This document shows, one piece after another, positions 5,823-57,407 of a DNA stretch of 64,000 nt. Source of the DNA: Marsupella aquatica (Eukaryota > Plantae > Marchantiophyta); the NCBI GenBank assembly GCA_973895155.1, contig OZ316897.1, positions 19,781,224 through 19,845,223 on the forward strand. Reading direction: 5' to 3'. Position 1 is the stretch's first letter. Every line of letters begins with the position of its first letter. Position numbers and translations under genes: made by a program. The notes under the pieces were generated by a model. The model saw only the letters and a list, made by a program, of their open reading frames with translations. It searched no databases and had not been told where the DNA came from.

Positions 5823-6949
5823 CATAACAAAGTCTAAACTATTCAGGCAAAGCTTAGTACTTTCATTATATAAGAATATATCATGATTGATAGGGTCTTG
5901 GTTGATGTTCTGCCAAATGGTTCTTCTCTATGGAGTTGTGGTTAATGTTTTTAGCAACACTCTTTTTGATGGTGTCATGTCTGTTTTGTAATAGAGTCTA
6001 AGTGTCCAAGCAAAGCCTAGTACTTTGGATAAAAGTCATGATTAATGATAGTGTATTGGTTTATGTTCTGGTAAACTTGGGTGCGGCCGGAGCGGGCAGC
6101 AGCATTGGGGACTTGGGCCGGAGCGGGAGACTACAAGTGAAGAGACATAAACACAAAATTGATTGCACAAAGTTGATTGGGTCGGAACAGTTCATAGAAT
6201 GATAGAGTCTTGATTTATGTTCTGTCAAAGTTGGACTGGAGCAAGCAGCAACATTGGGGATTGGTATGGGCAGTGTACGAAGCCCCAGGAATATGGGGAA
6301 GCACTAACACGTGTAGATTAATGGAGTGTAGATTTAACCTTTGTTTGAAGTCTCATCTTGGTAATGCACTCAAACAGTCTAAAGTTGTACACTACCCTAG
6401 AATTCCTTTCCTTGGGTGATGCTAAAATGGGTTCACTAACTGTATCTCTTGTATTGGAGATGTCCTGTAGGAGTTTCATTAAAAGACATTCAATGAAACC
6501 CTTGCTAGACCAAAAAGGATTCAGGTCACGTATGGGGTTAATAAAGGCTAATGGCATTGATTAGTCTCAATCTTGAGTTTTGTTCTTAAACCACAACTCG
6601 GGGTACATAAGGACCCCGAGCCCTGCCCGCGAGCGTGCCACTCTGCCCGCTGGGTCAGAGACCAGTTCGAACCCGAGGGACTAACCCGGGGTCAGCAGGG
6701 CCGCCCTCCCCTCCCCCACCAGCCCTAGACTGCGACGAGCTGCCCCTGCGAGCTGCTCGCCTCCTCCCCGCTCCTCCCTTCGACCCCTGCGAGCTGCTGG
6801 CCTCCTGCAAGCTGCTCGCCTCCTCTCACACTCCTCCCTTCGAGGTTTTGGCTACCATAGCCAGCCACAGTGTGCCCATGCTCGTTGCACCATCTGCTGC
6901 CCCTGGTTGCTGTTGCCACTCAATCGATTGCCGAAGCTTGATGCATCCT

Positions 6950-7830
6950 TGGCTGTTGGTGCTTCATTCAACTTGCTGCTTCATTCGACTTGCTGCTGAC
7001 TTCAACTCGCTGCTGCTGGGGCTGTTGCTACCGAGGCTCGCTGCTGTTGAGGCTGTTGCTGCCGAGGCTCGCTGCTGCCTCCCAGCTGAATGTGTATGGC
7101 CTCCTCCGTTTGAGCTTACGGCTGCCATAGCCATCCACGGACTGCCCTACTCGCTGCGCCCTTGGCTGCCCCTGTTTGCGAAGCTCTCGGCTGCCCCTAC
7201 TCGCTGTTGCTGCTCGATTTCCTGCTTGATCTCGCTGCTGAAACAATTTTGTGCTTCAACTCAACTTGCTGCTGAATAGATTTGCTGTTTCAACTCATTG
7301 CTTGAACTCGCTGTTGAAGCTCATGCTGAAGCTCGCTGCTGAATCTTGCTGCTGCCTCGGCTCTTGCTGCTGAAGCTCGCAGCTTCAACTCGCTGCTGCC
7401 CTCGCTCGCTGCTGCCTTGGTCCAAGCTCGCTTGCTGCTGAAATCTTGCTGCTGCTGAAGCTATTGCTGCTGAAGCTCACTGCTTCAACTCGCTGCTGCC
7501 CGAGCTCGCTACTGCCTTGGTCCAAGCTCGCTTGCTGCTGCCTCGGCTGTTGCTGCTGAAGCTCACCGCTTCAACTCGCTGTTGCCCTCACTCGTTGCTG
7601 CCTCGGTCCAAGCTTGCTGCTGAATCTTGCTGTTGCCTCGGCTGTTGCTGCTGAAGCTCGCCGCTTCAACTCGCTGCTGCCCTCACTTGCTGCTGCCCTC
7701 ACTTGCTGCTGCCTCGGTCCAAGCTCGCTGCTTCAACTTGTTGCTGCCTCTGTCCAAGCTCTCTTGCTGCTTCAACTCACTTCTGCCTTGGGTCCCTCAC
7801 CAACCTCGATTGCTGCTCAAGCTTGCTCAT
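6950..7830. repeat. GCT/CTG-rich imperfect tandem repeat inside the transposon left arm
   Basis: Recurrent unit such as gctgctgaagctcgccgcttcaactcgctgctgccc...gcctcggtccaagctcgc; produces low-complexity ORFs in several frames. Confidence 0.75.
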
Positions 7831-8132
7831 TGCTGCAGGTCAAGGTTGCTTGCTCCATAGCTCAAGCTCCTTGCTCATGCCATTGTGCCCACATTCCAGC
7901 TTCAGCTTCACTAGGGATAGTGTCAACTCTCTGGTCCCCTCTCCTCCTTCGTTACATTGCAATGTCAATTTTCGAGCAATGTAGTATTCATGTCTTGTTG
8001 CAATGAGTCAGACTTGGTTTTGGGTGATTTGAGTCGGTCTCTACTGGATCTCTATTGTTGAATTCATATTTTATGTGAGTGTTGGGCAGCAACAGCATAT
8101 GTGATATTTGAGTGTTTGATTTTTTCAGGAAC

Positions 8133-8531
8133 ATGGCACCAATTCGAAAGTTGAGAGCCACATTGACTGAACATGACAATGGGACCTACACCTTGAGTTG
8201 GCAGGATCCTGCTGATGTTGGCGATGCTCCACCTATTGTCCGGACTGTCACATTGGAACAAGTCCAAGCTGATTTTCCTGAATTCTCTACTACAATTTCA
8301 GAGTGTCACATGGATCTCAATCCTGTAGTCCCGATTGAACAATTTATCATGTGCGCAACATACAGTTATGCTGAAACTGTCATGAGAAGGAAAAGATTTC
8401 AGGTCTACACTCACTTGGCTTACATAGCAGGGTTTTCTGATAGAACCAAGTTTCCCGAAGCTGTTGAAGCTTGTGTGAAGGCGACTTGGCATGATGAAGG
8501 GGAGGAATTTGTAGGATTTATTCCAAATTAG
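8133..8531 (+). CDS. KolX-like accessory protein (resembles C-terminal part of the P2X7 ballast domain), 132 aa
   Basis: ATG at 8133 just after a tttttcag acceptor. C-terminus RRKRFQVYTHLAYIAGFSDRTKFPEAVEACVKATWHDEGEEFVGF fits the R..Y......G...R...P..V...I...(W/F)P....(Y/F).GF pattern I recall for ballast/KolX proteins. Convergent with the transposase. Confidence 0.6.
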   Translation: MAPIRKLRATLTEHDNGTYTLSWQDPADVGDAPPIVRTVTLEQVQADFPEFSTTISECHMDLNPVVPIEQFIMCATYSYAETVMRRKRFQVYTHLAYIAGFSDRTKFPEAVEACVKATWHDEGEEFVGFIPN

Positions 8532-8851
8532 GAGTACACAGGCTTCTGCTATATATGTTTCACATTTGTTTGAAATTTCTGCCAAGATCTACTAATAAAC
8601 TGTTTGCAGAGTATAACTCCTGCTGGTTGGCAGCAAAAGGGGTTCAATTCCCCTTGGGAGTACATGGCTATGGGTTAGACATGGGTTAGAGTACCACAAG
8701 TGCAATTTTTCCAGGAGGAGAACTCTTGTTTGAAATATTGTGCATCACAATTGCACCTGTTACAGGGAGACAACTCTTGCTTTTGTTTGGCAGCATGAAA
8801 AGATCAATTCCCTTCAGATGTTGACATATTCAATGAAACCAAAATGAGACA

Positions 8852-9232
8852 AGGTTGCCAAAGGGACCCAAATGATACTACCTCTCAAAGCGGCCCAGAA
8901 ATGCCATATGTCAACCACAAACTTTACTCATTCCCTCACTTTGGTGCTCCACTTCTAAACTTTTCTCATTCCATCACTAGGTTGGCAAAGGGACCCAGAT
9001 GATTACTACCTCTCAAAGCTGCCCAAAAATGCCATATGTCATTCAATAACCACAAACTTTACTCATTCCCTCGCTTGGTGCTCCACTTCTAAACTTTTCT
9101 CATTCCCTCACTTGTTGCCCAGGTTATAAGACTGTCATTCAATAACCACAAACTTTACTCATTCCCTCGCTTGGTGCTCCACTTCTAAACTTTTCTCATT
9201 CCCTCACTTGGTGCCCAGGTTATAAGACTGTT
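8852..9232. repeat. Nested direct repeats downstream of the KolX-like ORF
   Basis: aaccacaaactttactcattccctc...ggtgctccacttctaaacttttctcattcc occurs three times; aagggaccca.atgat..ctacctctcaaag occurs twice. Confidence 0.8.
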
Positions 9233-9542
9233 TGGGCATGGTATGAAAACAATTGACGAAAAACATAATTTATAAAAGTTTGAAATTTTGGCATAGCATT
9301 CCAAGTTGATAGTAATAGGGTACCCCCAAGTCCGGATTGCTAACACTATCCATGCAAAAAGGATGAAATACAAGTGGTGCCAGGTCTCAGCCCTCCTCAA
9401 GGAAATCACCCCTCCAATGGTAAACAATAAAATTAGCATTGAGGTACACAAAATGACAAATTTTCACACTATAATGAATTGTTTCCAGAAAGAATAAGTC
9501 ACAATTTTCACTCACATGAGGTATGTTAGCCGAGGTCATATA

Positions 9543-9909
9543 TGTTGAGCATAGACGACGATCGCAACGGCAAGCCCATGAACCATCCAACGCACAATAG
9601 TCGACACAAGAGATACGTGGTTCACCTCCTTGAGGCTACGTCCACGGGAACACACAAGAGAGCTTTACTGAACTCTAAGCCCGTCGGCTATACCGAGTCT
9701 CCATAGTGTAAGCTCTCCCTATCTCTCAAGTGGCTCCATAACAATGAGCCTTGGTTCTACCTCTCCAAGCATACATGCCTCTTATGATATAGTGTGCAAC
9801 TTAGTTGTACCTAACCACATAGTTGTACCTAATCACGTAGTTGTACCAACCCACGTTGTTGTACCAACCACGTCATACCTAACCTAGACGTAAGAGTAAA
9901 TACCCAACA
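9543..9909 (-). repeat. 3' LTR (367 bp)
   Basis: TGTTGAGC...CCCAACA; near-identical to 15570-15972. Confidence 0.95.
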
Positions 9910-9910
9910 A

Positions 9911-9920
9911 TCTTCCCCTT
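9911..9920 (-). other. Polypurine tract
   Basis: AAGGGGAAGA on the minus strand immediately before the 3' LTR. Confidence 0.85.
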
Positions 9921-10101
9921 GACTCTGGTCTAGGGGAGAGTAATACTGCCAATGTACATATGATCCCTCAGCGGGAAGTTCTGGATAAAAACCAAACCGG
10001 TTTCCCTCTCTAACTAGAGCAAACCAGAACTAAGACATAGCCTAATACATAGGAATGAGGAAGAGCATATATCAGTAATTACAATGAATGTTAAGAAAAC
10101 T

Positions 10102-13100
10102 CTACTTGTGATGCAATTGCAAAACCTGCAATACGTCACGGTGTCTAGAGAAGCTCTCCAAAGGAATCACTTTGGTAAATGCGTCAGCCGGGTTGAGTTT
10201 ACCATCAATCTTGACTAGCTCAAACAAATTATCAGACACAGCCTGCCTGATAAAATGGTACCTAACGTCAATGTGCTTCACTCTGCTATCCATCACCTGG
10301 TTCACAGCAAGGTGGAGCGCACTTTGACTATCACAATGGAGCTTCACATTCCCCTGTGGCAATCCCATTTCAGTGATAAGTCTATCCAACCAAATCGCAT
10401 CCTTTGCTGCTTCCGCAGCTGCAACATACTCCGCTTCTGTAGTAGACTGAGCAATACACTTCTGCAAAGTAGACCTCCAACTTATGCATCCACCGCCAAG
10501 TGTGAACACGTATCCTGTTGTTGATCTCCTTCGGTCCAAATCTTGTCCATAGTCAGAATCAACATAGCCAATCAATGATTTAGCATTCTTTGCATTCGCA
10601 TCAAATAAAAGACCATGATCCACGGTACCCTTCAAGTACCTGATAATCCACTTCACTGCTTCCCAGTGTACCTTCCCTGGATTCGACATGTACCTGCTCA
10701 CCTTGCCCATAGCCATGGCAAGATCAGGTCTAGTGCAAGTCATCAAATACATGAGACTCCCCATTGCCTTGTCATACGGAACCTTTGACATCAACCCCTT
10801 CTCTGTGTCATCCGTAGGACAGAACGCTGATGATAACTTGAAGTGTGGAGCCAACGGGGTACTTACTGGCTTGCTATTCCCCATGTTGAACCTTGCAATT
10901 ACCTTCCTCGCATAACTGCTCTGCGTCAACCATAGCTTGCCAACCTCCAAGTCCCTAGTGATCTCCATACCCAAAATCCTCTTAGCTGGCCCTAAGTCCT
11001 TCATCTTAAACTCTGCACTAAGCAGTGCCTTGAGCTTAACAATCTCAGACCTATCCTTGGCTGCAATTAGCATATCATCCACATAAAGTACTAAAACAAT
11101 GAACCCAAAGACAACATTCTTTACCGGTTTCAAATACACACAAGGGTCAAATACACTTCTGTGAAAACCTTGTGACCGAATCCAATCGTCAAACCGCTTG
11201 TTCCACTGTCTTGGTGACTGCTTCAACCCATACAAGGATTTCAGCAATCTGCAAACCAATTCCTCCTGTCCTCTCTTCACAAAATCTAGCGGTTGTCTCA
11301 TGAAGATCACCTCTTCCAATGTGCCATAGAGGAAAGCTGTGACAACATCCATCTGATCTAGCAGCAGACCAAACATTACAACAAGTACACACAATAGTCG
11401 TATTGTAGAGTACTTAGCAACTGGTGAGAAGACCTCATTGTAATCCACACCTTTCTCTTGTGTGAATCCCTTTGCTACCAATCTAGCCTTGTAGACCTTC
11501 AATCCACCTCCTATGGAATTATCCTTCAGCTTGTAAATCCACTTGCTGTCCACCACTTGCTGACCCTTAGGCAGCTTAACAAGCTCCCAAGTTTTGTTGT
11601 CCTTTAGTGACTGCATCTCTGTTTGCATTGCTGTAGTCCACTTCTGCTTCTCCTTTGAAGCACTTGCCTCATGAAATGAAGAAGGTTCCCCTTCTTCCAA
11701 AATTAACGCATCACCCTCATCATCAGTTGTAAAATCATCCTCTTGCAGTTGAGATGAATCAACCCACTGTCCATACCTTGGTGGAGCGCGTACAGTGTGA
11801 CCAGATGTTCTTCTAGCCGATGGCTCCGGTTGATCTGCGTGTGCTGGTATAATTTGAAGCTCAACAACATCCACTTGCTGCTCACCAGCATCAACAAACT
11901 CCTCTGGTTCCTCTGGCACAGGAACCAGCTCCATAATTGGAGCAACTCTTTCTCTCCGGTCATGCACCTCATAACCAATCTCCCCCTCAACGAGATCCGG
12001 GATAAGAGATTTTTCTTTGTCAGTACGGGAGACCTGAGTATTCTCCCCCTCCTTCAATAATCTGGATTCATTGAAGGAAACATCCCTACTGACAACGAGC
12101 TTACAGGCAATAGGATCCCATAGCCTATAGGCTTTCACACCAGTCTGGTACCCAAGAAAAACACATTTCTTGGAGGTACGATCCAACTTGGTCCTATTCT
12201 GCTTCGGTGTGAGATCATATGCATCACTTCCAAAAACTACCAAGCCATGATAGTCTGCTTGCCGCTTATAGCGCATCTCAAACGGCATTTTGAAATTGAT
12301 AGCACTAGAAGGAGAAAGATTTACCAAATAAGCTGCGGTATTGACAGCTTCTGCCCAAAATTCTTGTGGTAAACCTGATTGGCTCAACATACTCCGTGAC
12401 CACTCCAACAGTGTCCAATTGAGCCTCTCAGCGAAACCATTCTACTACGGAGTATAAACTGTGGTGAGATGACGAGTTACCCCCTGTTCTGAACAGTACT
12501 CTTCAAATTCCATTGAAGTGTACTCCTCGCCCTTGTCTGACCTCAGACTCTTCACCCTTGTATCCAAACACTTGATCGTGTTTCCAGCCTGATTCTCCAC
12601 CTGGGCCTTCCACTTCTTAAAAATGGACAAGACATCAGACTTATGCGTCATGAAATAAATCCACACAAATCTTGAGTAATCATCAATAAATGATACATAG
12701 TACAACTTTCCAGAGTGTGAGGGAGTCGGGGATGGACCCCACACGTCACTATGTATGTACTCAAGAACCGTTTTGGAACGATGAGTTCCAACACCAAAAG
12801 CACGACGATGTTGCTTTCCAAGAATGCAATGCTCACAAAACTCTAATTTACAAGATTGCAAATCAGAAATGAGTCCATTCTTCCGTAAGATAGCCAAACC
12901 CTTCTCACTCATGTGGCCTAGCCGTGAATGCCATAGTTGAGTCATCTCCTCGTGAGACTTGGTTACATTGGCCTCTCCACATACAGTATTGCCCTGTAAC
13001 ACATACAAATTCTTTTGTCTACTCCCCTTCAAAATCACTGTCTCTCCCGACCTGACTTGAAGTTCACCATCAATAACGCTCCATTGATGACCATTTGAAT

Positions 13101-13374
13101 CCAACACACCGAGTGAAATCAGATTCTTACGCATGCCAGGTACATACCTGACTCCGGACACTGTGCGCATAGCGCCATCAAACATTTGAATCTTCACAGA
13201 CCCAATTCCCTCAATTTGACAAGAGTGATCATTTCCCATCAGAACTGAACCATTTGAAACAGAGTAAGAACTGAAAAACTCACGAATGTAACAAATATGA
13301 AAAGAGCAAGCACAATCAAGAATCCACATATCATCTGCTCTCCTAGATGACGTGCACAGGGCATACCCCCGGCT
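10102..13374 (-). pseudogene. pol: copia pol (protease, GAG-pre-integrase, integrase, RT, RNase H) with two in-frame stops
   Basis: WILDCACSFH protease motif; LWHSRLGH and CEHC; HSDVWGP and FIDDYSR integrase; YVDD RT; HIDVRYHF RNase H. TAG TAG at 12442-12447 replaces QQ of TPQQNG. Confidence 0.92.
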
Positions 13375-14415
13375 TCATAAAACATACTCATCATTGAGTA
13401 AATCAGCTTCTCCATCAGCCCTAGCCACATTTGCCGATGAAGTTTCCGCTGCCTTTCCCTTACAGTCTCGCTTGAAGTGTCCAACTTGGTTGCACTTCCA
13501 ACATGTCACCTGCCTCCTCTGAGGGGATTTACCCTTGGACTTAGATTTGAATTTAGATCTAAACTGGGTTCTACGGTCCCCAGTTGGTCGCTGCATACTC
13601 CTCCCACGGTTAACATTGAGGGCAGCACCAGATGATGAAGGCTGTGACGTGATGTGCATCTTCTGCTGAAGATCATCACTAAGCAGAGAACTTACCACGT
13701 CATTGTATGAAATGGTATCCCTATCACGATGCAACAACACTCGTGATAGGGACTGGTAAGATGGAGGCAATGAACTAAGAAGCTGCAGAGCCTTCGTCTC
13801 ATCATTCAAAGTCTCCCCAAGGTTTTCCAAGTCAACGACCATGTCGTTGAAAGCATCCACATGGTCTTGCAACTTCGTACCGGATTCCTTCATCCTGAAA
13901 CTCATCAATTTGTAGGAAGTGTAGAGCCGGTTCGACAACTCCTTGCGGTGATACTTGCTCTGCAATTCCGCAAACAAGGACATGCAATCCTTATGTGCAC
14001 CCAACTGCTTGATGATGGGAGGCATGAGATAGAGTGTAACACACCACACTCCCTGCTCCTGCATGCGGTCCCATTGTTTCTCATCAACATCGTCTTCACG
14101 AGGGCTCAGCAGTTGGCCCATCCCTGACGCATAGAGCACTCCCTTCACCTGCTTCTCCCATAGCAAGTAGTCAGAGCGCCCATCATACTTTGTCACTTCA
14201 TACTTGGGTCCCCCAAGCTTGAAAGTCCCCATCTTCTTCTTTGGCACTACCGTGAGCTCCGGTAGTAGTACTGCTTCCTCCACCACACGCCGCACCGGTG
14301 ATGGTATCGGTGTCACGTGCTCTTCCTCCTGCTCCTCTCTCTGCCCCTGAAACCTCCGCGGTGATCCTCGTGATTCAAGTTCCACGTCTTCGAAAAACTC
14401 CTCCGAATCACTCAT
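13375..14415 (-). CDS. gag: copia Gag (UBN2-like core plus CCHC zinc knuckle)
   Basis: KYDGRSDYLLW, LLSSLPPSY and CWKCNQVGHFKRDC motifs; ends at a TGA in frame with the protease. Confidence 0.9.
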   Translation of the reverse strand: MSDSEEFFEDVELESRGSPRRFQGQREEQEEEHVTPIPSPVRRVVEEAVLLPELTVVPKKKMGTFKLGGPKYEVTKYDGRSDYLLWEKQVKGVLYASGMGQLLSPREDDVDEKQWDRMQEQGVWCVTLYLMPPIIKQLGAHKDCMSLFAELQSKYHRKELSNRLYTSYKLMSFRMKESGTKLQDHVDAFNDMVVDLENLGETLNDETKALQLLSSLPPSYQSLSRVLLHRDRDTISYNDVVSSLLSDDLQQKMHITSQPSSSGAALNVNRGRSMQRPTGDRRTQFRSKFKSKSKGKSPQRRQVTCWKCNQVGHFKRDCKGKAAETSSANVARADGEADLLNDEYVL

Positions 14416-15555
14416 ATGAGAAAATCACAAAAAATGTTGTTTTTCACAACTTCTCAAAAAACTCGAAACTCAACACCGCCGCGTAGCCCACAAAGCTAGG
14501 AGTCCAATACTGAAAACCGAAATCAAAATCGAAATTTAACGGAAAAGTTATTCAAATTTTGGTCGAGGTGGGTAAATCCTTGGGAAACTCCCCCGTTTTG
14601 AACACCTCAGGGAATAACCGAAATACCAAGTACAACCCGTTGTCGGAATTGCGATGTGATTGGTGCGCCGCGTTGCCAACTTCAATGGCTACGACCTCGC
14701 CGAAAAATAACCAAAAAAGTTACCGTTCGGCGGATGAAATCTTTGTCGGACGGTCAAAAAATAGCTCTCTGGTTTTTTTGGAATATTCTATGACCCTTGT
14801 ACAGGCCCTGTGGGAATTTTGGAAGAACAATCGAGGGGCTGACACGTGTCCTCGAACCCCCAAAACCCCCTACCACCCTTCGTCGTCGAAATCTGGTCGC
14901 GCGCGCAGAAAATACACACGGCAGAATGTACCCCTCGACACCAAACGCAAGATATCTCACTCGGGTTTTGACGAAATCAAGATCCGATTTCAGATTTGGA
15001 AACTAGACTCCGAGGCGGTGAAGATCGATATAAGAAGCACCCAAAACGAGGAAAGAACAAGGGAGAAAAAAATTGGTAAAGATAACAGATTTCTCTCAAT
15101 TGCCATAGCCAATTTCGAATCAGTTTTTCAAAGAGAAAAAAATGGTACCTTGTCAACAAGGAATGTTGATCAATTGCACTTGGTGCCGTCACCAAGTCCA
15201 ACAAGGTAATTGATTTTGCTTAGCCTTCCTCTTTGCATCAAAGAGCCAATCCCGGACTCAAAATAATCGTCTTGCCTCAATCTCTCCGTTGAGTCAAAAC
15301 ACTTGATGCTTCTCCCTCCGAGTCGATTGCCAACTTTCTTCACAAAATCCAGAACGACAAAAACTTAGATCTCTCTGCACCACGAGCTCCGTTCAACAAT
15401 TTCTTCACACCGTTAGAAAGCTCTTGCCCTGATCTATCCGTTGAGCCCATAAACTCCAAGTTCCATGCGACAGAACTCTGGGAAATCCACCAACACTCAA
15501 CGCTGGAAAAACCGTCATGAAATCCCGTCACGAACACACGTCACCTCCCAAGCAT

Positions 15556-15567
15556 GCTCTGATACCA
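15556..15567 (-). other. Primer-binding site (tRNA-iMet type)
   Basis: TGGTATCAGAGC on the minus strand, 2 nt inside the 5' LTR boundary. Confidence 0.93.
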
Positions 15568-15569
15568 AT

Positions 15570-15972
15570 TGTTGAGCATAGACGACGATCGCAACGGCAA
15601 GCCCATGAACCATCCAACGCACAATAGTCGACACAAGAGATACGTGGTTCACCTCCTTGAGGCTACGTCCACGGGAACACACAAGAGAGCTTTACTGAAC
15701 TCTAAGCCCGTCGGCTATACCGAGTCTCCATAGTGTAAGCTCTCCCTATCTCTCAAGTGGCTCCATAACAATGAGCCTTGGTTCTACCTCTCCAAGCATA
15801 CATGCCTCGTATGATATAGTGTGCAACTTAGTTGTACCTAACCACATAGTTGTACCTAATCACGTAGTTGTACCTAACCACATAGTTGTACCTAATCACG
15901 TAGTTGTACCAACCCACGTTGTTGTACCAACCACGTCATACCTAACCTAGACGTAAGAGTAAATACCCAACA
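15570..15972 (-). repeat. 5' LTR (403 bp)
   Basis: Same sequence as the 3' LTR plus one extra 36-bp block of the 18-bp ttgtacctaa(c/t)cac(a/g)tag repeat and at least one substitution. Confidence 0.95.
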
Positions 15973-16161
15973 ATATATGGAGGTGTTACTCCATATGTAC
16001 GATGATCTTATAGAGAGAAAGTACTTGGGTGGTAATGTCTGAGCATCTAGGATGACATGAAATCATCCTGCAAAAAAACAATTTGTAATTAGAATTACCT
16101 CAAACATACCCTATCCTTACATTTTATGCTTGCAATCATATTTATGGAGGAGTGTCTTACC

Positions 16162-19100
16162 TCATGGACTTGTCACACCATAAATGCGTTCACTTGTTGT
16201 GTCCTTCCAACTAGTGGTGCGGTCCACCAATACTCGTGTTCGAGGAGGACGCTCTCTGACACTTGTATTCACAGGTCTGCTATCATATACCTTCCAAACA
16301 TGTCTTCTTATATTCTCGTTCCAATCCATGGCAGCACAACACAAACGGGCCTCATGGCTTGCCGAAAAATGAATACGCTTGGTGGCATACTTGCCCATGA
16401 CGGAATGGTAGGTCTCTGACATGAAATTCTCCCGGGCCATGGTATAAAACCTCATCTTCGCAGGAGTAATGTATTTTTTCATGAACTTTTGCATAGCCTT
16501 GTGAGTCTTCCCACCTACATGCACAAAGTACAAAAATTCAATAAAAAAGTCATGCATGGAAGTTCAATCATGCTAACATGTGACATAAGTCACAAAAGGA
16601 GGTCACAAATTAAATTACTTACCTCTTGCATAGTAATGGTCAAGCTGGATAGCTTCTACTTCCTCAAGATGCTGACAAGGTCTGTCAGATAATCTCGCAC
16701 ATAAACTATGATCCCCGGCCCAATGATCACCACAATTGCTCAACTCGAAGGCCAGAGATGCAGCGTCCCCCCCACTGCATATTGAACATTCTATAGTCAA
16801 ATAGGGTAAAATAAACCCAAACCAAACCAACATTAGTATTTACACATTATATCAAATTGAAAAGTCACCAAACATGAACATTGTAAATACCTGCTCTTAC
16901 ATCGTCGACAACATACATAAAACCAGGTCTTGAACTTTGTGGCAATGTTGTGTTGAGACAACTCTGGGTACTTGAGACCACGTGTCGGAATATGTACTAG
17001 TTCACCTAGAGGCAATCCACGCATGTCGCCAACTTTGTGAACAAGTGCTTCCTTCCTAAGGGTTGAATACCCTCTCACTCCCCGTGCCTTGAACCAATCC
17101 TGTAATCTCTTAGCGGTTACTGCTTGCAACTCAGAACGGGATGCGGCAGTATCAATGTCAATAGTCACAGTATATGTGGCGCTCACCATCTTCTCCACAA
17201 ACTTCTTGACAAGGTTTTTGGCCTTGTGCCACAAGTCCTTCTGGTTCCTAATCTCCATGTCCTCCACAATATTATCAATAGTGGCTTTGTCATCATGGAT
17301 AACCTCTATGATAGAAATGCCAGCCTCTCTCAGATTATCCAATGCTCTCTGAGTACCCTTGTCCTCCATGTGCCAAGCATTTCTCTCCTCTCTTCTAGTA
17401 ATTGTGACCATCTCAATTACCCTATTATCTTCCATGCTCAAAATAGAGGTGGTACCATGATAACCGCTCCGAGAAGAATCCCATCGAGTATCCAAATACA
17501 CTACTAACCCAGGGTCTGTCATAACCAATGCATATAGTAACTATTAGAATCAAAACTCATCATGACCCAATAAGACTTTGATCCTTGAGTAACTAGAGAA
17601 AGTGAAAGAGGGTAACATAAATTACTTACTAGTCTCAGTTGCTCGCCTCTGCTGAATAGTATCCCTCAATTGCTGCCACATATGCCTTTTGTTTTCTTCC
17701 CATTGCTGTCTCACAGCTGCTATCCATCCACCCCGAGGACGACCACGACCACTCTGAAAGTCATGCCAATGAGCTGCAGTGGGGACATGTAACCCAAGAT
17801 GCGCGGCAACAGCAGCCAAGGAGGTATAGGTGAGGCCAGCACAAAGGGTGGAATGATACAAATGAGGGGTAATCATAGGCGAACTCCTCCCAGGCTCATT
17901 GTCACCCGTAACAAAAGTCCAGCCATGTCCATCCTCTCCACAACCAATATGAATAGACCACAACTGATGCAACTCGGACACTCGCTCAACTCTTGGGATC
18001 CGAGGACATGCATGTATATGACACCGGGGTAGTAGCCTGTCAACAAAAGTACCCAACAAGTTGCGATCAAAAAATGCTACCCTGGCTGGTACACGAGGGC
18101 TCGTTCTACGAGTCGGGAGTGCGTCGGGAGGTCGTAACGGCTGAGAGTCAGGTGCGCGAGATGCCTGAGAGTCTGCAACCCGGGATGGCTGATCATTGGC
18201 CTCTGGAGATGGCTGAGGGTCTACATCTGGAGAAGGTCGAGACATCTGGGAATCGGGGACGATGAACAACTCCTGTAAAAAATGTCACGGATATGAATTA
18301 AAGATTGTGTCTCAACAATTGCAAAATTGTAATGGGAAGCCTTGGATAATGTGAAAGAGCTCAAACCTGGAAGGTATCCCCATCCCCAATGTGGTCAGCT
18401 CCTAAAGTTGCAACAACATCTGGATCATCATCCCGATACATGGATTCATCTTCTGCATCTGATCCATATTGCTCTGCAATATTCTTGTCTAAGACAACAT
18501 CCTCTTCGAGTAGTGCATCCTGGAAGACAATGTTGGGATTATACAAAAATAAATACTCCACAAATATGGTTACAATAAATCCTAAGGTAGAGTTTGACCA
18601 ATAATTATTGACCATATTGGTGGAGGGTTATTGAAGCCAGTTTTCTTCAATAAACACAAACCTGACCCCCAAGGCATGACCCAAATGGAAATCACAGTAT
18701 AGCATAAGCTTGAACCCAAGGAACATACAAATATAAATACATGTGCTTGTTTATTATGACCCTTGAGTACCCTAATACCTGACCTAATCAGGTTTACTAA
18801 ATTTTTGTTTCAAATAGAAATTACAATACAGCACGAGCTTCAATGAAGGGTTTATATATTCAAATATAAATACATGTGCTTGTTTATTATGACCCTTGAG
18901 TACCCTAATACCTGACCTAATCAGGTTTACTAAATTTTTGTTTCAAATAGAAATTACAATACAGCACGAGCTTCAATGAAGGGTTTATATATTCAAATAT
19001 AAATACATGTGCTTGTTTATTATGACCCTTGAGTACCCTAATACCTGACCTAATCAGGTTTACTAAATTTTTGTTTCAAATAGAAATTACAATACAGCAC

Positions 19101-19685
19101 GAGCTTCAATGAAGGGTTTATATATTCAAATATAAATAATTATGCTTCTTGGTACAATGGGAGACTTTCATTTTCCTTCAGATGTGATTTATTATTTATG
19201 TTTCAAATAAGAAGCATAGTACAGGATAAGCCTAAATCAATGGGTTTATACAAAGGGCCAAAATGAATTGCTAAAATGGGCAAATATTGAGTAAATGAAA
19301 GGAGGTTCCCACCTGAAGTGATGACTGTGAAGCCTGACCCATGTGCTGACCACTTGTGGGCGAAGGCATAGCCTCGGGTGGAATTGGAGCGGCCTCAGCT
19401 GCTCGCCATACCCGAAGCTCCTGAACTATAGGCCGTGCACGATCAAGTAACCATGTGACCATAGTAGAGTGGGTCGTATCCTGTCCAAGTAGAGCTCTAA
19501 GGTCCTCCCACTCATCCCACCGGTCAAGTGGGACCCGGATTTCGGGCTTGGCATCCGGTCTCCGCCTCTTCTTGTAATCGATGTCATCACTCGGATATCA
19601 CTGCCTTGGTGGACCACCACCCTGTGGGGGGCGTTTCCGCCTCCCATCCGGAAGAGGGGGGGGGGGGGTGACCCGGCATACTCAT
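16162..19685 (-). pseudogene. Multi-exon Kolobok-type DDE transposase, probably disabled in exon 1
   Basis: Phase-consistent GT-AG exons: ~19685-19313, 18519-18367, 18272-17630, 17515-16891, 16774-16623, 16514-16162. Motifs LDTRWDS (D), MEDKG, IHDD (D), DLWH, HWAGDHSLC, SETYHS..KYATKRIHF..R..AAMDWNEN (E). In-frame TGA at 19598-19600 and a G-run frameshift near 19656-19668 in the putative first exon. Confidence 0.75.
18728..19138. repeat. Three apparently identical 133-bp tandem units in transposase intron 1
   Basis: Units start at 18728, 18861 and 18994, with a partial unit at 19127: caaatataaatacatgtgcttg...gggtttatatatt. Confidence 0.95.
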
Positions 19686-22600
19686 ACTAGCCTATCCTAA
19701 AACCTACACTAAAAAAAAACCTATAAGCTCTAAACGGAGAACGGAGACCGGATGCCAAGTCCAACCCGGCAAGCAACTACAAAGTTGCACCAAAAAACCT
19801 CAAGTTGAACACAAGTAGAAAGGTAGTAAGAGGTGAGAATAAAAATTTGGGGAGGACAATGAGGCCTGAATGCAAGCACACAGGCTCTTTGCCCCCTGCC
19901 AGCCCTCTACCCCTCTTCCCCATTGGCTACATCCCCTTAGATCCTGGTCGTCCAAAGCATTTTTTTTAGTAACCCTAACACGTTCCCTAACCAGCCGCCG
20001 CGCTAACTCACGTTGCAGAATTTTTTCCGCCACCCACATAGGGCAGCGCACACTGCAGCTGCCAAAAAGGTACAAGTCACACAGAGGACACTTGCGAGTT
20101 TTGAACCTGAGACCTCAAGTACACAGGCAGGAGTTTGAACCGAAATGCTAGGAGGAAATCTTCGAAAATAGCAAAGCGAAAACTATAACTAAACTAATGA
20201 AGGCCGCTCAGGCCCACAAGGGCAGGGCCGGGGCCCTCTTTGGCCGGATGTCCCACACAACAAAGGCCTGTGCTGCCCGACCATATGAGAGCCTGGCCGC
20301 ACCCGCGAAGGAGCCCTGCCACAGGCATTTTCCGCAGGCCAGATGTCCCCTGCCCGACCTGCCCGAAACTTTTCAAATTTGAATTTGTGGCTCTGCCAAT
20401 CAGAACACTACATTTGTTTTTCACAATTTTCTTTCTTATTTTTTATCATTTTTAATCCTGGTTTTTTTGTATACGTAGATCTTGAAGAGATCTTGAATTT
20501 GAACCGTGGATCGGGTCATTTGGTGGACGGATAAGATTTTTGCAAGCTTCGATCGAAGGGCTGGCGACGGGCGCCCGTCCACAAATGCGAATGTCGCGTT
20601 TTTGTTATGTCTACTCCGGGTCACCCGGAGTACTTGTAGTACGATTTGTGGTTTAATAAAAAAAGGAACATGTTTAAACTTTCTACTGAGGATCACTGCC
20701 ATGTGCCTGCATTAATTCCATTGGAATTTTGAGTGCTGTAATATTATGTCGCTCGTGTATTCTAGGCCAGCATAATTACACAGGCCCTCTCATTTACGGG
20801 GCTCCGCTCAGTCGCTCACATGCATCAATGGTGTAAAACTGTCAAGAGGAGGGAGGACTTGAGCACTCCCCAGTTCTTTCTCCTTTCCGTTCTCCACTAG
20901 TAGACCTTCACGAAAATTGTCTCCACGGCCAAAAATGCAGTGAGAATATCACACAGTCGCACTGTAGTGGATTTCCAACGAAGTACGAAGATTCCGTGTG
21001 TGATCACGTCATCAAGTCAGCAGGATACTTTTTGAGCTTCGTTTTGTAAGGTCCATGAATCCATGCAACTTTAGAGAAAAGTAGACCTGTCAACTGCTCA
21101 GTGCTGCACTGTGCGACAGGTATGCCTAATGAGGATTCTGGTAAAGTAGTAGCCAAGGCACGGCCCGTCGATTGTAAATATGGTGTCAAGTTACTCGATA
21201 GCCATGACTGGATCGACTACGTTCATTTATAGCCGGTACATTGTAAATGGTGTCAAGTTACTCGATAGGCATGACGGGATCGACTACGTCCATAATTATG
21301 TGCCATAGTCACAGACGGCTCCTTTTTTCAGAGACTGGACTACTGGAGGTGATCACTTTAATTAGTAGTCTTGGCCGACACAAGAGTTATCTTGTTCCTT
21401 CCCAGTCAGTTAATTGGTACTTTAATCGGCGCAAGCTCCCCCAGCCTTTTGTTAGTTTGTATCCTTTGGTGTGCCACTCGTCTGTCGGCATGAGTCGCGC
21501 TCCACCACGCCTCCATTCTATGCTAGTGACAATCTTTAGATTCTCATTTGGGTTTTCATGGTGCTAAAATAATGAGCCCACAAGAGCAGCCAAAATTCAG
21601 AGTCGATTCAAAATGAAACTCAATCCAGGATGGACCAAGTTTGCCCAAAAAGGCTCATTTAGATTTTTGCACAAAATTATAGTGCAACGCGCTGCTTCTA
21701 TGGCTTGATACAAAATAAGGCCAGCTTCACAACTTTTAATGCCGTAACTTCCACCAGGATGAATTGCAGGGAAACTTGCTCTTAGTACAGATTCAAAGAC
21801 CAGTGAAATGTGACAAACAAATTAGACAGTCATCTTTGAAACTTAGTAGGTCCCTCAATTCTCGATGAAATTTGATTTACGCCACTCATTGGGAAATATC
21901 TTACAAATCAGTTTCTAACAAATCCAAGAAAGCCACTCATTGGGAAATATCTTTCCACTCACTGTGGGCACATTATGTATGAGTGAAATACTAAATGTCA
22001 AAGTTACTTGCTAGAAACCTTTTGGAAGCATAAAGTGTGGACAATGAGTGATGCAGTGATCTTGAGAAATTCAGAACTATCTCAATTTTTCATGAAAACT
22101 AGAGATATTAGGCTTTGGAAAGATCTTTCCAGACAACTTGTGACAAGCCCAAGTAGAGAGCCTAATTCTGCTTGATAGAAAGGGAGATGTTGAAGGTCAA
22201 ATTTGCTATTGATAATAATTTGGAAAGGAAGAAGAAGTATCAATGAGTGGTTTCTTGCATTGGGCAATGACAACATCCCAAAGGAGGGACCTTCAAATAA
22301 TATTATTACATGTCCGGAGTCTATGGTGGTGGAGGGTAGATGTGTGGAGTCTTGATTAATACAATTTACCTATCTCTTTTGAATATGGATGGTAAGTTCT
22401 TAAGGGGGAGAACTATCTTGATGCTAACCATTGAAGATGGGCTAAAAATAAACAATTGTATTCTAGTTCTAAGTACTTTTGGGAGAGAATTGAATTTTTG
22501 AGGGTCTATTGTCTCTCGATCAACTGGAAGGGGAGAATTTTTATTGTATGGAGTTGTTGAATAGGCTCATGGGGTCTCCTATTTTTTATGTGCAATTATT

Positions 22601-44252: not shown

Positions 44253-46362
44253 CATACTGTCATTTTTGGCTTTCGGAAACCTTGCAACGTCGCCATGGTG
44301 TGTAAATATTAATTAAAGCGCTTCTTAAGATATATTCCATTCTCAAAAGAGTCAACAGCTTGCCTGTCCAAGGCTTTCCTTTGGATATTCGTGGTATGAC
44401 CTAAATGCTACAAAACAAATCCTTGAAAATGTTTGGGTCTATTCTTATACTTAATTCTGTTGCTGTACCATGCCATGTCACTTGAGACTTAAAAGATCGC
44501 AAACCCTTTGCTTTAACTTCACGATTTGAGGATGGCAAGCTTTGGTCATGGTTTGTTGCACAACGTCATCTTCTTAGGGAAACAACTCGCCCTTATAACC
44601 TATTTTTTCAACTTTGCAATGGGATCCACTAGTTTAAAGAGGTCACTCAGTCAGTTGTCTCAAGCTATGGTCCGTGAATGCTAAGTTATTGATTCATTTG
44701 CAAGTTTTCACAAATGGAGGATATGCACAGTCTGGTTGTAGGTGGTTTGCCCACGTACTTGTTACTGGGAATCCCCTGTTCGAAACAAAGACTGGGGATT
44801 GTGTCCAACTTGGGGAAGCGTTAAAGAAATGCCCATGTTAAACCCTAGTGAAGAGGGTACAGCATACTTCATGCCCTGTGACCTTAAATTTTTCCCAAAG
44901 CGGGTATCTCACCTATAATTAATATTTCCACGCCCAGTTCAGGTAAGATCGATGGTGTGTGTTTAACGTGCATTGTCAACTACTTAAAAAGTGTGTAGCA
45001 CATCTAGATCTCCTGACCTTGCAGCTCTTGGTGAGGATTTTTAGTTGAAGAACGATGCAATTTGCGGGTGCAGTTGGCATACTCAGGCCCTTGGAATTTC
45101 CCCAAGCATATCACCATGCATTCTCCCCGTGTATAATTTTGAATGTCATGGGCAGGAAGCTTCGATTCCGAGTCGTACGTAGTGCGTACTTGACAGGGCT
45201 AAATAGGCCTCTCCGTTGACCCGGCTCACCGTACTTACTCGATAAGGAGTATTTAGTATTTAGGGTAACTCCAGGTACGTCGGTGCAAGTCAATTAGGGC
45301 TAGGGGGCCTTGTGCCGATTCGGTGTCAGAGCCAGGAACGAACTCAATTGTGGCATGGCACCTCGACCTATTGTATTTTCCATGAGTCAACATTTCAGCC
45401 AGCTAGTTTAGTTGGGAAAGTAAGCTCGAATAGGAGCTATAATATTGATTATTAATAGCCTCTAACCCGGCCTCTAATAACCAAAATTGTTTTTTCGGAC
45501 AAGATTCGGACTAGTGATATATCGAATAAGGTACGTTTAAGCTTGGCTGACATGATTGAGTTGAAAGTGTGGCACTTCGCCCAGAATGTGTGATTACTGC
45601 CAGATAAGAATTCACTATAAAGGTGGGTCAAATAAGATTTGAATCGTAGACCAGATAGAATTGTAACGGTAGACCAGACTATAATTGTTTGTCCTGAGTC
45701 ATTCATCCTTGGCCAGCCGGAACTCTTTGAGGTGGCGCAGAGTGGGATTACTGCCGGATACAATTCATTTTAACGGTAGGCCAGATATGTTTGTAACGGT
45801 AGGCCGGACACGAGTCATTTGTCCTTTTCTAGTCTGTCCTCTTTGTAGAGTATGGGGATTTCTATGGATAAAGGCATCCCGAAAGATCTACCAGGGTCAT
45901 TTTCCACTGTTCTGCCATTTTTTGAGCCTTGTTATTCTGAAGTTGGAGGAAGCCTTCTTGTCACGAGTTCAATTTTCTTCCACATAAGTATGTAGACAGA
46001 GCTTTCACTTTGGGCCAATTTCTTCAACAGAGCTAGTAGCAAGGACAGGATTTGAAAGTCGGGACGGCCTATTTTCTCTCAGGAAGGGAAGCTAGAGATC
46101 GGAGACCTGCAAGAGATAGTGCGACAAGCTAGGAGTACGTGGCGTGTAGAGAGTAGGTACGTGCAGGTACGAATTAGCAGGAGCCCTGCAGTTCCGAATT
46201 AAAGCCATCCCAGGAGGTGAGATCAACCGGGAGGAATAAGCCCTGAAAAGCACAAAGATCGTTTGAAGCTAAACTTCAGAGAAGCTACGTCCTGCAGGAG
46301 GAGAAGTTCGCAAGAGAAATATATATAGTGTCTTTGTGATCGACATACTTGCACGTCTTGAA

Positions 46363-47352
46363 ATGGGGTCATATTGGGTATCTAATGAAGAGATGTTCGA
46401 TGCATTTTCTGGACTTAACAAGTTACCAACTTGGGACGAGTCACTACAAACTGATGGGAGTAAATGGGTTCCCAATGATCATGTGCATTATATCGAATCT
46501 GGAAGGCCAGATGGGGATGCAACCCATTTCCAAGAATTAGAGATGGGAGAGGGCTGCAGCCAAGGTCGTAACAATCTAGCAGCAGACCATTACGAATCAG
46601 AGATGGCGAGAATTCTCGCCAGTTCACCAGTGGGTGGACCTGTTCAAGAAGAAGATCAAGGGATGTGCTCTGCAGCCTCGTCAAACTTCCATGTCGACAT
46701 CATGGGATCACAAGTACACATAAGTGAAGAAATGGTTATGGAAGCCAGAATATTAGCTTGCAAAATGGTGGGGAATGTCTTCTACGAGGAAATGGAAACC
46801 GCAGGACTCCCAATTCTTCCACAATTACTATCGAGTCTTCATTTAACTCTTCAGAAATTACAGGATGACAATGTTCAAGTCACAATGGAAACATTTACAA
46901 AGGAGGCCTGCAAATGGGTTTACAGGTACATGGCAGGCCAGAAGCACAGACGAGTTTTTGGGCATCCTCAGCACATTAAGAATATACCTAAAAACTGGGG
47001 GCTCCAGAACCCTGGCCGCTTTTACCCCTCTGATAAAGAATTGGAAGAGATAGCAGGAGACACCGGATTGGAGAAGCGCCAGGTCTCGACCCTTTTCGAA
47101 AATGAAAGGAAGAGAAATCTGAAGGATATTTCTGAGCTCCAAGGAAAATTGAAATCGCACTTTGAACCGCGCATCACCAAAATTCTCAGAGATTGGCAAG
47201 CTGAGAATCACCCAAGGAGACAGCCAAACAAAGACGAACGAAATAGTTTGATGGAGGAAACTGGATTGAATATCAAACAGATTATGGATTGGTTTAATAA
47301 CCACAGCGCTGGAAGAAATCGTTCTAAGAAAAGGAGCTTTGAGCCCTCTTAG
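46363..47352 (+). CDS. Intronless protein with two tandem divergent TALE-like homeodomains
   Basis: HD1 NWGLQNPGRFYPSDKELEEIAGDTGLEKRQVSTLFENERKR; HD2 KILRDWQAENHPRRQPNKDERNSLMEETGLNIKQIMDWFNN. TATA-like atatatag about 40 nt upstream of the ATG. Confidence 0.75.
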   Translation: MGSYWVSNEEMFDAFSGLNKLPTWDESLQTDGSKWVPNDHVHYIESGRPDGDATHFQELEMGEGCSQGRNNLAADHYESEMARILASSPVGGPVQEEDQGMCSAASSNFHVDIMGSQVHISEEMVMEARILACKMVGNVFYEEMETAGLPILPQLLSSLHLTLQKLQDDNVQVTMETFTKEACKWVYRYMAGQKHRRVFGHPQHIKNIPKNWGLQNPGRFYPSDKELEEIAGDTGLEKRQVSTLFENERKRNLKDISELQGKLKSHFEPRITKILRDWQAENHPRRQPNKDERNSLMEETGLNIKQIMDWFNNHSAGRNRSKKRSFEPS

Positions 47353-54073: not shown

Positions 54074-54682
54074 TCAGTTCTCTGATTTGGACTCTACGAA
54101 GACTGGAAGAATTAGATCAAATGCAGTATGTAGATCTTTCTGTTTCTTAAAGCCCGCAACGACAACTTTTCCGGATGAAAAAGCTAAAAAAGTCATCTTT
54201 GGTTTCTGGATCCTGCCCACAAAGGCAGGAAATATTTCAGGTTCCCATATGCCGGGAAAAGGTTTCCTCAACGATAGATGAATGAGGTTGAGCTTGAATG
54301 GCAGCTCTATGATTCCAACCATGTTTACCACTTGCCAGTTCTTAAACTGCACTCGAGCGTAATCCAATTTCTGCATAACTCGGGCAATTTTCCTGCATGC
54401 CAATCTGGAGGCGTCTTCGTGCGTCGCTCCAGTGACAATTACTCTCCCTGAAGGAAAGATGAGAGCTGTAGTTTTTGGCTCTCTGATTCTCATGACCACA
54501 GCATTAAACTTCCTTGGGTTGTACTCTGCGTTCAGAGCTCTCCTCGCGATGTCCGTGGGGTCCACTTTAATACCCAAATCGAAGCCGGAAACAACATTCG
54601 TCATCCTCGGTGTGATGGACTCCTGAAGTTTCTTGTAATGACTTCTAAAGTTTTCTTTGGCCCCAGAAACTACTCGCTCCAT
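54074..54682 (-). CDS. Divergent intronless TATA-binding-protein-like protein, 202 aa
   Basis: NAEYNPRKFNAVVMRIREPKTTALIFPSGRVIVTGA (repeat 1) and WEPEIFPAFVGRIQKPKMTFLAFSSGKVVVAG (repeat 2); single open frame. Confidence 0.88.
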   Translation of the reverse strand: MERVVSGAKENFRSHYKKLQESITPRMTNVVSGFDLGIKVDPTDIARRALNAEYNPRKFNAVVMRIREPKTTALIFPSGRVIVTGATHEDASRLACRKIARVMQKLDYARVQFKNWQVVNMVGIIELPFKLNLIHLSLRKPFPGIWEPEIFPAFVGRIQKPKMTFLAFSSGKVVVAGFKKQKDLHTAFDLILPVFVESKSEN

Positions 54683-57407
54683 CGATAGCTAATTGATTCC
54701 AGAAATGGGCGATAGACGCAAAATGTGATATATATATTCTCAAGGAAGTTGCTCGAGCCAAAAGTTAACAGCCAGATCTATGTGATTCTGAACTGAAGGA
54801 AGATGCTCCAGCTAAAAGTAAAGAGCCAGATTTATGGAGGGCTGCAAGAAGAGCTGAGTGCGATTACCGCTATCCTAAACTGCCTTATATGCAGGGTTAC
54901 CGCGTTGTTGGTCAGTCCTCAATATCATCGTACTGAACGGTTCGTGGGTAAAGAAGCTTCCGTCTTTGGTCCTGTTCTCGTCCCCGTTCTCATCCTGTCA
55001 CTTGTCAGTTGTGAGAGGCCATGTCATCCTTTGTTACCCGGTGCTGCCGTTTTCTAAATAAGTTGTGAATGGCCATGTCATACTTTGTTACCCGGTGCTG
55101 CAGTTTTCTAAATAACTGGAGACTCTAATACGACAGACAATCCCGCATCAGTGATTTTTGGTTGGCTTCAATCAACTTGTAAGATTAAGCTAAGCTAATC
55201 ATCCATCTACTGTCCCCTTTTCTATAGGTCTTCAGCCCGCTCGTCAGTGTTGACCAATGTAGGCATTCGGGAAACCTCTATCCAGTTAAGGTTTTTCTTT
55301 TTTGGCATTGGTGCCCATTGTCACCCTGAGCGAAGGAGAAGATTGTCACCTTGTGTGAAAGAGAAGATGTGAGGAATGTTCTTTGTCTATTTTTACCAAA
55401 ATGAACTAACAAGATGGGATGTCTTGGCATTGGCATTGCACAAAAGATGTTGAGGTGAGATAGGGTGAGAAAAGATAATGAGACCTTGGTGGAAAGGGTG
55501 AGAAAAGATATTGAGCCCTAACTTGGTCCTCAATCTCAGCTAGTATGTGAAGCACATGCCTTAATTCATTTTGAAGTAATAGTTTTTATAATAACAAGTG
55601 AAGTTTTCATAGTAAAATGAGAAAATAAAGGGTAAATAATTAAGAAGAGGTCACAATGGCAAGGGGGTTCACTTCTTTTACACAGAGTGAGGGCAGGCCC
55701 AGGGATGTTCGGGGGGGGGGGGGGTTCACTTCCACAAATGTAAGTAAGGGGCGTTTGATTCATTTTAGGGAAGTACTGGCTCCCTTTACCTATGCTTTAT
55801 GGGCTATGTTTTGAAAACCTAATCCGATGAGAAAGGTACTGTACTTGCAATTGAATTCGTTGACGAACATTGGGCAACTTGTCCAATAATGTGATATGGA
55901 GCCGTTTCCCTACCCCTTCATAATATCTACAAAAGTCCCGAAAGCTACCGTACTCGCTGGGAGCGTGATTCAATCAAGTATCGTTGCGAACAGTCTGTCG
56001 GGCCCACGAATTGATTGACATTGTCTGTAAAACGCGTCCAGGACAACATTGCCAAGCAGAGTGAAGCATCTTGGAAACCAGAATCCCTTCAAAGACTGCT
56101 ACAATCGTGAGCACGAAATGAGTCGAATCACTGATTAGAGTTACGAACAGTAGGAGTTTGACTTTTTGCTCAGTGCTTTCGAAGGATCCATCTCATTTCT
56201 ATTCGGCGATTATGTACTTAGCACCACAGCCGTCACATGCGTAAACCTTAAAAACAAGCTATGAGGGTCGTCGATCACGCGCCCCATCACTTGAGTGGTT
56301 ACTATGCGCCAGTCTTCGTCCTCTTTTTACGTTTGTCGATAGTAAAACTTAGTCTCAAATGATAACGTAGCGTTTCTGTTCAGATAGCTACACTACTTTG
56401 GTTTAAACAGAGGCGCGAGTCTCCGAGTTATTTGTTGAAATTCTGGCCGCTTCTTTTCTAATGAGACGTGCGTCTCCTCCGAGTTATCTGCTGAATCTTG
56501 AGTCTCGCCCATAACGTGCTAATCATAGCCCTTCCCCTTGCCTGGAATGAAGCTTTTCACGTAATTTTGGAGAGTAGCCTCAAATGTGAAACAAAACATG
56601 TACAATGGCTTCACTGACACTCGACGTGAGCCAGTGCTCGACCAACCATTCTTTCTCATCGTCCTATATAATGATAGATAGTTAGTCTAGGCTCCTCATC
56701 TCGCTCATCATAACTCGAAGTACGACATTCTGGGCTTCTCGGGCGTCTTCGAGAGCTCCTAAAAGTACTTGTCCGCACCTCAGAAGGCTTCTTCTTGCTC
56801 GGCTCCGAAATCCAAACTCTTGATAGTGAGCTGTGTAGGTCCATTATCGATCAGAAACCAAGCTGCTCGTGACGAATTGAGTTAACGAGGCAGAGGAGTT
56901 GGAAAAATCGCTGATAGTAGGTCCATTTGCACATACTCAAGCGGATCGGCCACAGTTGGGTAAAATCATTTATAACTTTGGGCCTTGCTAAAATTTTGAA
57001 GGATTGCATTGAAGATGGGAGACTGATGAATTATGCGGTGGATAAATTGTTTGCAAAAGTCTTGCTTTCCAACGCTTTCAACGGCCATGCGTCTTGGTAG
57101 CCAATATATTGTTGAATGTGGTGATTCATAGGATTATCCTTCCGCATTAACATTTGCATAGTTATTACAGTACCGTCGGTCATGACCGGGGCAGATCGGG
57201 AGAAAAAAACCCCGAAAAAGTTCTTGTAGAGAGATGCGTGAGTTCTATTCGGTCTGAAGCTTGAGTTTCCCATTGTTCTGACTGTGGATTTCAATAGGTA
57301 ACCAGCTAGCAGCGCTACGGTGGCGGCGAGGGATTGCGCTTACGGTCAACAGTCACTCAAGCTTTAGTTTCTAAACCGTCCCTAGGAAATCAGAAAAGAG
57401 ATCGAAA

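Follow-up and report, generated by a model that had tools for sequence, protein, structure and literature searches.

A Kolobok-type transposon in a liverwort carries an intact second gene, probably a zinc-free relative of KolX and the P2X7 ballast

We analyzed a 64,000-nt stretch of the genome of the liverwort Marsupella aquatica (the window; contig OZ316897.1). It contains one copy of a Kolobok-type DNA transposon with two genes, a short accessory ORF and a six-exon transposase gene on the minus strand, which converge on a nested Copia retrotransposon (Table 1). Without the Copia insertion, the transposon is 7,628 bp long. Neighboring genes in the window include XET, DUF679, and DUF247 genes and a Copia element. 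There are also two intronless ORFs, one with two homeodomain (Homeobox_KN) stretches (46273-47352, plus strand) and one encoding a TBP-like protein of 204 aa (54074-54688, minus strand; Pfam TBP, E 1e-44) that by eye has diverged from canonical TBP. A 63-nt inverted-repeat pair (907-969/2038-2100) may bound a further DNA element, as may three nested inverted-repeat pairs near 22077-22204/29551-29675, which enclose an XET gene fragment.

Table 1. Features of the transposon copy and its two genes (window coordinates)
Feature	Position	Strand	Basis
Kolobok-type DNA transposon copy, two convergent genes	6590..20652	.	inverted ends; contig depth
Left TTAA target-site copy	6586..6589	+	sequence; first T (6586) is where a high-depth contig of run X3 begins
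Right TTAA target-site copy	20653..20656	+	sequence
Left terminal inverted repeat, 7 exact bases, mismatch, 3 more; begins AC	6590..6600	+	
Right terminal inverted repeat; plus-strand end reads GT	20642..20652	-	
GC-rich GCT-repeat region, putative promoter and non-coding first exon	6601..7838	+	GC 0.48-0.69, repeats
Predicted splice acceptor, T-tract and AG at 8127-8128	8118..8128	+	T-richness; diverged-copy alignment starts 8109-8125
Accessory ORF, 132 aa	8133..8531	+	ATG to TAG, no internal stops; homologs, selection, predicted model
Probable ballast/KolX-like C-terminal lobe, residues 84-131 (about rat P2X7 542-592)	8382..8525	+	bridge proteins P0034, P0048
Nested Copia LTR retrotransposon, ATATA target duplication	9543..15972	-	LTRs; empty-site contigs
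Transposase exon 1, open part from conserved YPSD motif	19313..19597	-	
Transposase exon 2, acidic linker	18367..18519	-	GT-AG introns, in frame
Transposase exon 3	17630..18272	-	
Transposase exon 4: first D 17490-17492, second D 17292-17294, DxxH 17235-17237, SAP-like insert	16891..17515	-	
Transposase exon 5, His/Cys finger part	16623..16774	-	
Transposase exon 6: catalytic E 16414-16416 (ExxHS), stop	16162..16514	-	
In-frame TGA just before YPSD, sole transposase lesion seen	19598..19600	-	

The insertion reads TTAA-AC...GT-TTAA and so shows the TTAA target-site duplication of Kolobok elements. Between the TTAA copies the element begins AC and finishes GT, which departs from the 5'-RR and YY-3' termini of Kolobok; alternatively, the same end letters give AA..TT ends and, within TTAA, a TA duplication. 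Because the TTAA rule and the RR..YY rule cannot both hold, we call the element Kolobok-type and not a canonical member. Contig depth jumps at the left edge of the transposon in all four runs, which indicates a multi-copy element, although depth is not equivalent to copy number. A short element of 310 bp at 59884-60193 has the same termini as the large one (ACCACAACT...AGTTGTGGT) and is likely its non-autonomous partner. Its left flank is TTAA and its right flank TTAC, and a 2-bp TA duplication with AA..TT ends fits these flanks better than a 4-bp TTAA.

The nested Copia, which separates the two genes at their 3' ends, is very young, with LTRs identical at 366 of 367 bases plus one 36-bp indel. 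Contigs reading across its empty site were present in three of the four runs (X2-X4; loose ends at 9544). Copia LTR depth is very high in all four runs, and the gag-pol gene is split into three ORFs, at about 12441-12445 and 13374-13375.

The six transposase exons, joined across five GT-AG introns, encode 736 codons with no internal stop and with every catalytic residue present. Exon 2 is the least certain, since no homolog alignment covers it. The spliced frame contains the D-D-DxxH-E signature of Kolobok: D369, D435, and D454xxH457 are each conserved in nine out of nine homologs and E653 in eight, and the order of the motifs is that of the Kolobok rows in Data S5 of Kojima and Bao (2022; PMC9587614), compared by eye. 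In most Kolobok lineages, DxxH and the catalytic E are separated by a zinc finger (PMC9587614). Such a finger is found here as well (C562, H586, H591, C594, and C602), and its residues are shared by all seven homologs covering the region, two further ones being gapped. Mutator-like Pfam matches, weak and under cutoff, were obtained for five of the nine homologs. Exon 4 includes a SAP-like domain after DxxH (17030-17130, minus strand), and the Riccia homologs bear the name "SAP domain-containing protein" instead of transposase. We also observed three near-identical 133-bp tandem copies in intron 1 (18725-19150) and a 21-bp inverted repeat with one arm in exon 1 (19544-19564) and the other ∼180 bp upstream (19742-19762).

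An initial annotation of this locus, made from sequence alone, had described the transposase as looking damaged, which overstates the case: the one lesion seen is at the 5' end. Just 5' of the TGA there is no in-frame start, and the next in-frame Met lies 46 codons downstream; homologs begin five to nine residues upstream of the YPSD motif. With this single lesion at its 5' end, we regard the copy as 5'-damaged, not generally decayed. It is probably unable to make full-length transposase and could provide the accessory protein in trans. The intact ORF, the very young nested Copia, and the single transposase lesion do not imply that the copy is currently expressed. No RNA source was among the four runs, which speaks neither for nor against expression.

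The accessory ORF was found to be intact, as had been proposed. It encodes an acidic protein (pI 4.85; 11 K+R vs. 19 D+E) whose C-terminal part carries the motif R88..Y92...G100..R104..P108....W119....F126-V-G128-F129. The proposed 5' splice acceptor is also predicted in our analysis: the AG at 8127-8128 (TTTTTTCAG) has the T-richest upstream tract among the 60 AG sites from 6620 to 8135, lies four bases 5' of the ATG, and is close to the point at which diverged copies begin to align. A candidate donor (CAG/GT, 7838/7839) lies at the end of the GC-rich region.

We used variation among copies to examine selection on the ORF. Contigs of the four runs over 8100-8545 contained 105 variants, and the best-supported 40 were classified as 22 synonymous and 18 nonsynonymous, with no stops. 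The resulting pN/pS was 0.23-0.31 (P between 4e-6 and 2e-4, according to how transitions were weighted) and 0.15-0.20 for residues 63-132; these figures are approximate because variants within one codon were counted separately. As a control, the other five frames yielded 6-17 synonymous changes from the same 40 variants. No indel in the ORF reached 10%, and some low-depth copies had gaps or deletions. The accessory ORF is under purifying selection among copies, and the conservation on which the initial annotation had staked its reading is therefore present. Such selection indicates that the protein matters to the element; it does not say how. At 141-245 lies a frameshifted remnant of the C-terminal lobe of this gene, with parts deleted and 51% identity across 39 aa.

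Sequence search returned 10 close homologous proteins, and a family profile run against 1.84 billion representatives retrieved 43 (E ≤ 0.001). Two of the 43 (P0035 and P0050, proteins with HYR and cadherin repeats) were dropped as spurious matches to the N-terminal strands. Species names, available for 12 relatives from 25 proteins looked up and one further cluster member, were all those of liverworts: Calypogeia fissa (four), Riccia sorocarpa (seven), and Riccia fluitans (one). Calypogeia fissa CAM6082157.1 and its relatives, R. sorocarpa R1sor_008397, and R. fluitans R1flu_023960 (E 3e-41 to 1e-8) are unannotated gene models of the same family as the ORF over the whole or most of their length; they are named only hypothetical or unnamed, and the names shown carry no transposon label. 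The ORF protein clusters near the Calypogeia proteins, without strong support. Transposase homologs also came mainly from R. sorocarpa (eight out of nine). One of them, R1sor_008396 (43% identity to the window's transposase), has a locus tag consecutive with that of the accessory homolog R1sor_008397, and the longest contig given in the two records has an identical length. Such adjacency was seen for one of the seven named R. sorocarpa ORF homologs, among eight R. sorocarpa transposase matches; a second pair was 12 tags apart. Queries of the ESM Atlas with the ORF protein (P0001) and with P0034, a more distant relative, gave no usable match, and no related loci were found in metagenome or viral contigs.

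The last ∼45 aa of the protein had been likened to the guanine-nucleotide-binding end of the P2X7 cytoplasmic ballast and to KolX. Direct comparison did not bear this out: Pfam P2RX7_C matched neither P0001 nor any of 11 close family members, and P2X7 was not found among PDB sequences with four family queries. The homology is therefore a two-step one, by way of two bridge proteins, P0034 and P0048, and on this route the likeness held over ∼48 aa. Both were retrieved by the family profile, and both matched P2RX7_C, P0034 at E 8e-12 and P0048 at E 2e-4 (21.7 bits, below the Pfam cutoff of 23.5 bits); among 38 more distant relatives, one match was above the cutoff and one below. All four PDB matches of P0034 were to P2X7 residues 525-592, at weak significance (E 0.03-0.16), and a profile of the bridge proteins ranked P2X7 first to fourth (E 0.003-0.03). 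When scored with a profile of 30 sequences from which both bridges had been left out, single domains of P0034 and P0048 reached 47.5 and 51.7 bits, compared with at most 2.6 bits for shuffles. The first E-value for P0034 (1.8e-7) had summed two tandem copies; a single copy scored 26.9 bits (E 0.41) with that same first profile. P0034, a JGI/IMG protein, has two tandem ballast C-terminal lobes, with no more than a CxxC...C motif between them. A 98.7% hhalign match between two family alignments was not counted, since members of the target had been picked by the family profile and the comparison was circular, and formate dehydrogenase matches (E 0.03) were rejected as a short chance motif.

The published C-terminal motif, R..(A)Y followed by (L/I/V)P.....I(R)..(F/Y)P.....Y(S/T)G, is recognizable in the ORF in its published spacing (R88, Y92, F107-P108, V115-K116, W119, F126, G128), and the distances from P108 to F126 and G128 equal those from P570 to Y588 and G590. 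The gene sits second in a Kolobok-type element, inside the TTAA-flanked ends and convergent with the transposase; this position and its conservation among copies agree with the proposed transposon accessory gene. On the strength of the bridge-protein scores and this transposon setting, residues 84-131 very probably share ancestry with the terminal part of the P2X7 ballast and KolX.

Of two AlphaFold2 models of the protein (mean pLDDT 82.8 and 87.7, weak at residues 121-132), the one with the higher pLDDT predicts a three-stranded N-terminal sheet (residues 9-40) and five helices, of which three (41-47, 49-62, and 68-80) precede the lobe helices 84-99 and 109-118. The helices in 49-80 may be either diverged counterparts of ballast helices or an addition. 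Foldseek searches with the whole-protein models gave no match at E ≤ 0.001 in PDB or viral structures. Among 48,161 representatives the best VIA-align Z for these models was 5.8, and among 998 Foldseek-ranked chains it was 4.1; P2X7 chains were absent from the best 50 rows of each search, in which the P2X cluster representative may lack the ballast. Residues 1-80 had no counterpart in the sequence and structure searches.

To compare the putative pocket, we threaded the protein onto rat P2X7 and computed conservation across the family. The positions equated with R546 (R88; R in 33/41), Y550 (Y92; Y in 41/41), P570 (P108; P in 37/39), R578 (K116; K/R in 37/39), F581 (W119; W in 32/37), Y588 (F126; F/Y in 30/36), and G590 (G128; G in 30/35) are well kept. 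Relative to the P2X7 ballast (Pfam PF20478, P2RX7_C; PDB 6U9V; Rump et al. 2020, PMC7016195), the ORF retains R546, Y550, P570, G590, and F591 and has Lys for R578. It differs in being free-standing and transposon-borne, in its lack of zinc ligands, and in a loop four residues shorter between R546 and P570. Of the five GDP ligands of the rat protein, three are lost (H547, R574, and K583, aligned with F89, E112, and D121), and they are lost across the family (F/Y for H547 in 34/41; E112 in 29/39; D/E121 in 29/37). According to PMC7016195, invertebrate ballast domains retain only R546 and R578 as ligands, so the predicted pocket looks no worse than theirs. Judged from these residues, binding of a guanine nucleotide by the accessory protein is possible, if doubtful.

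Close to even odds, though somewhat short of them, attach to the reading that the lobe is a true ballast homolog whose pocket no longer binds guanine nucleotide, its conserved residues forming the core of a protein-binding module. The replacement of two basic ligands by acids and of H547 by F/Y favors a non-binding pocket; Y92, P108, and W119 could be packing residues, and PMC7016195 does not establish that ballast domains outside mammals bind GDP. Against it, the portion shared with animals is the pocket-forming part, and it is at the invertebrate-kept positions (R88 and K/R116) and in the terminal F/Y-x-G-F that conservation persists.

The Cys-rich zinc cluster of animal versions was said to be absent, and we reach the same conclusion. 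None of the three Cys of the protein (58, 74, and 114) falls within a motif of the seven-Cys dinuclear cluster (PxWCxCxxC, CC...GxCIT, PSC), and WCxCxxC or GxCIT-type motifs were not found upstream of the ORF on the plus strand within the element. An alternative metal site, C58/H59/C74/H94, was rejected on family-wide conservation (C58 13/33, H59 13/34, H94 13/41). Since the zinc cluster is missing, we did not file the protein as a canonical KolX.

Taken together, we put a probability of roughly 70% on the following reading: of the two genes of this Kolobok-type transposon, the ORF is the second and is intact, and its product is a KolX relative, reduced and zinc-free, that likely helps or regulates the transposase. 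A helper role as such is probable. The gene would be transcribed inward from the left end of the transposon and spliced at 8128. In the predicted model, the sheet and three helices of residues 9-80 may pack against the lobe in the place of the zinc cluster, and the conserved set R88/Y92/P108/K116/W119/F126-G128-F129 may form the pocket that holds GDP in P2X7. This acidic protein would have the transposase or some host protein, and not DNA, as its binding partner, and it may act on the transposase through protein-protein contact, perhaps with a guanine nucleotide bound.

The protein might instead be an anti-silencing, chromatin, or transcription factor for the element that makes no contact with the transposase, which we consider unlikely. 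Anti-silencing genes do occur in plant transposons, VANC of the VANDAL elements being one; the accessory gene appears to have its own promoter and transcript; and in PMC7016195 the domesticated relative Nanor is proposed to act in transcription. However, the protein is acidic and shows no evident DNA-binding motif, and sequence and Pfam searches revealed no link to such factors. It is less likely still that the ballast likeness is convergent or due to chance and that this is an unrelated, liverwort-specific accessory protein. The common stretch spans just ∼48 aa, no counterpart was found for residues 1-80, and direct Pfam or PDB sequence matches are lacking, but the bridge proteins score ∼45-49 bits above the best shuffles and independently match P2RX7_C and P2X7, and a TTAA-flanked element with a Kolobok-type transposase is the known home of KolX. 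An ordinary, full KolX with its zinc cluster on an upstream exon spliced in at 8128 is extremely improbable: the frame is open from 8112, 14 of 54 upstream GT sites could extend it in frame, and two long candidate extensions carry nine Cys, but none of the extensions has a CxCxxC motif and their Cys derive from GCT repeats, region 6601..7838 has large skips and frame-breaking indels in other copies, Calypogeia model P0006 has the same start position as the ORF, and the C572 position (the seventh Cys, inside the lobe) is Cys in just four of 39 family members.

Returning to the reading of the protein as a reduced KolX relative, the closest described system is KolX itself, the second protein of Kol0 (Kolobok0) elements such as Kolobok-1_XT, whose link to the ballast has already been published (Kojima and Bao 2022; PMC9587614). 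KolX and the ORF are both second genes of TTAA-flanked elements with a D-D-DxxH-E transposase, and both have the ballast-fold end R..Y...LP....I/V-K/R..W/F....F/Y-x-G-F. The liverwort protein differs in lacking the seven-Cys zinc cluster and in residues 1-80, a different predicted sheet-plus-helix part, and its element differs in its land-plant host, SAP-like transposase insert, and AC..GT ends (reference transposases were compared by eye). Reduced forms of KolX have a counterpart in the piggyBac families piggyBac-2_GrCh and piggyBac-14_PI, whose hosts we take to be a red alga and an oomycete. Cys-poor KolX-like proteins were reported for both families (Data S6, PMC9587614), so the reduction is not unprecedented. 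By eye, the piggyBac-2_GrCh protein ends in the W-x-D/E...F/Y-x-G-F pattern of the ORF; unlike the liverwort protein, those of both families are piggyBac-borne and have a short N-terminal part with a Cys pair in place of the sheet and helices.

Among plants, PMC9587614 places Kolobok only in chlorophytes and rhodophytes, and Rump et al. (2020; PMC7016195) describe the ballast domain as not detectable in plants. In a search of freely available papers, we found no Kolobok-type element or ballast-like protein of land plants; one review that came up mentions Kolobok a single time, for tetrapods. What looks new is a land-plant lineage with an N-terminal fold of its own.

According to PMC9859053, it is not known what KolX does or what role the zinc and GDP sites play in the P2X7 ballast, and Rump et al. 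[quoted passage not shown] The present family is under purifying selection, retains the pocket end, and lacks the zinc cluster, which speaks for two separable parts, and the ORF protein offers a small natural protein suited to a binding assay. More speculatively, and in our view somewhat unlikely, these genes may belong to an undescribed, old liverwort lineage of Kolobok-type elements whose helper dropped the zinc cluster, gained an N-terminal fold, and kept only the nucleotide pocket. If so, the pocket and not the zinc would be the ancestral working unit, the protein would be a guanine-nucleotide-sensing switch on transposition, and a soluble protein of 132 aa would be the simplest model for the role of the P2X7 GDP site.
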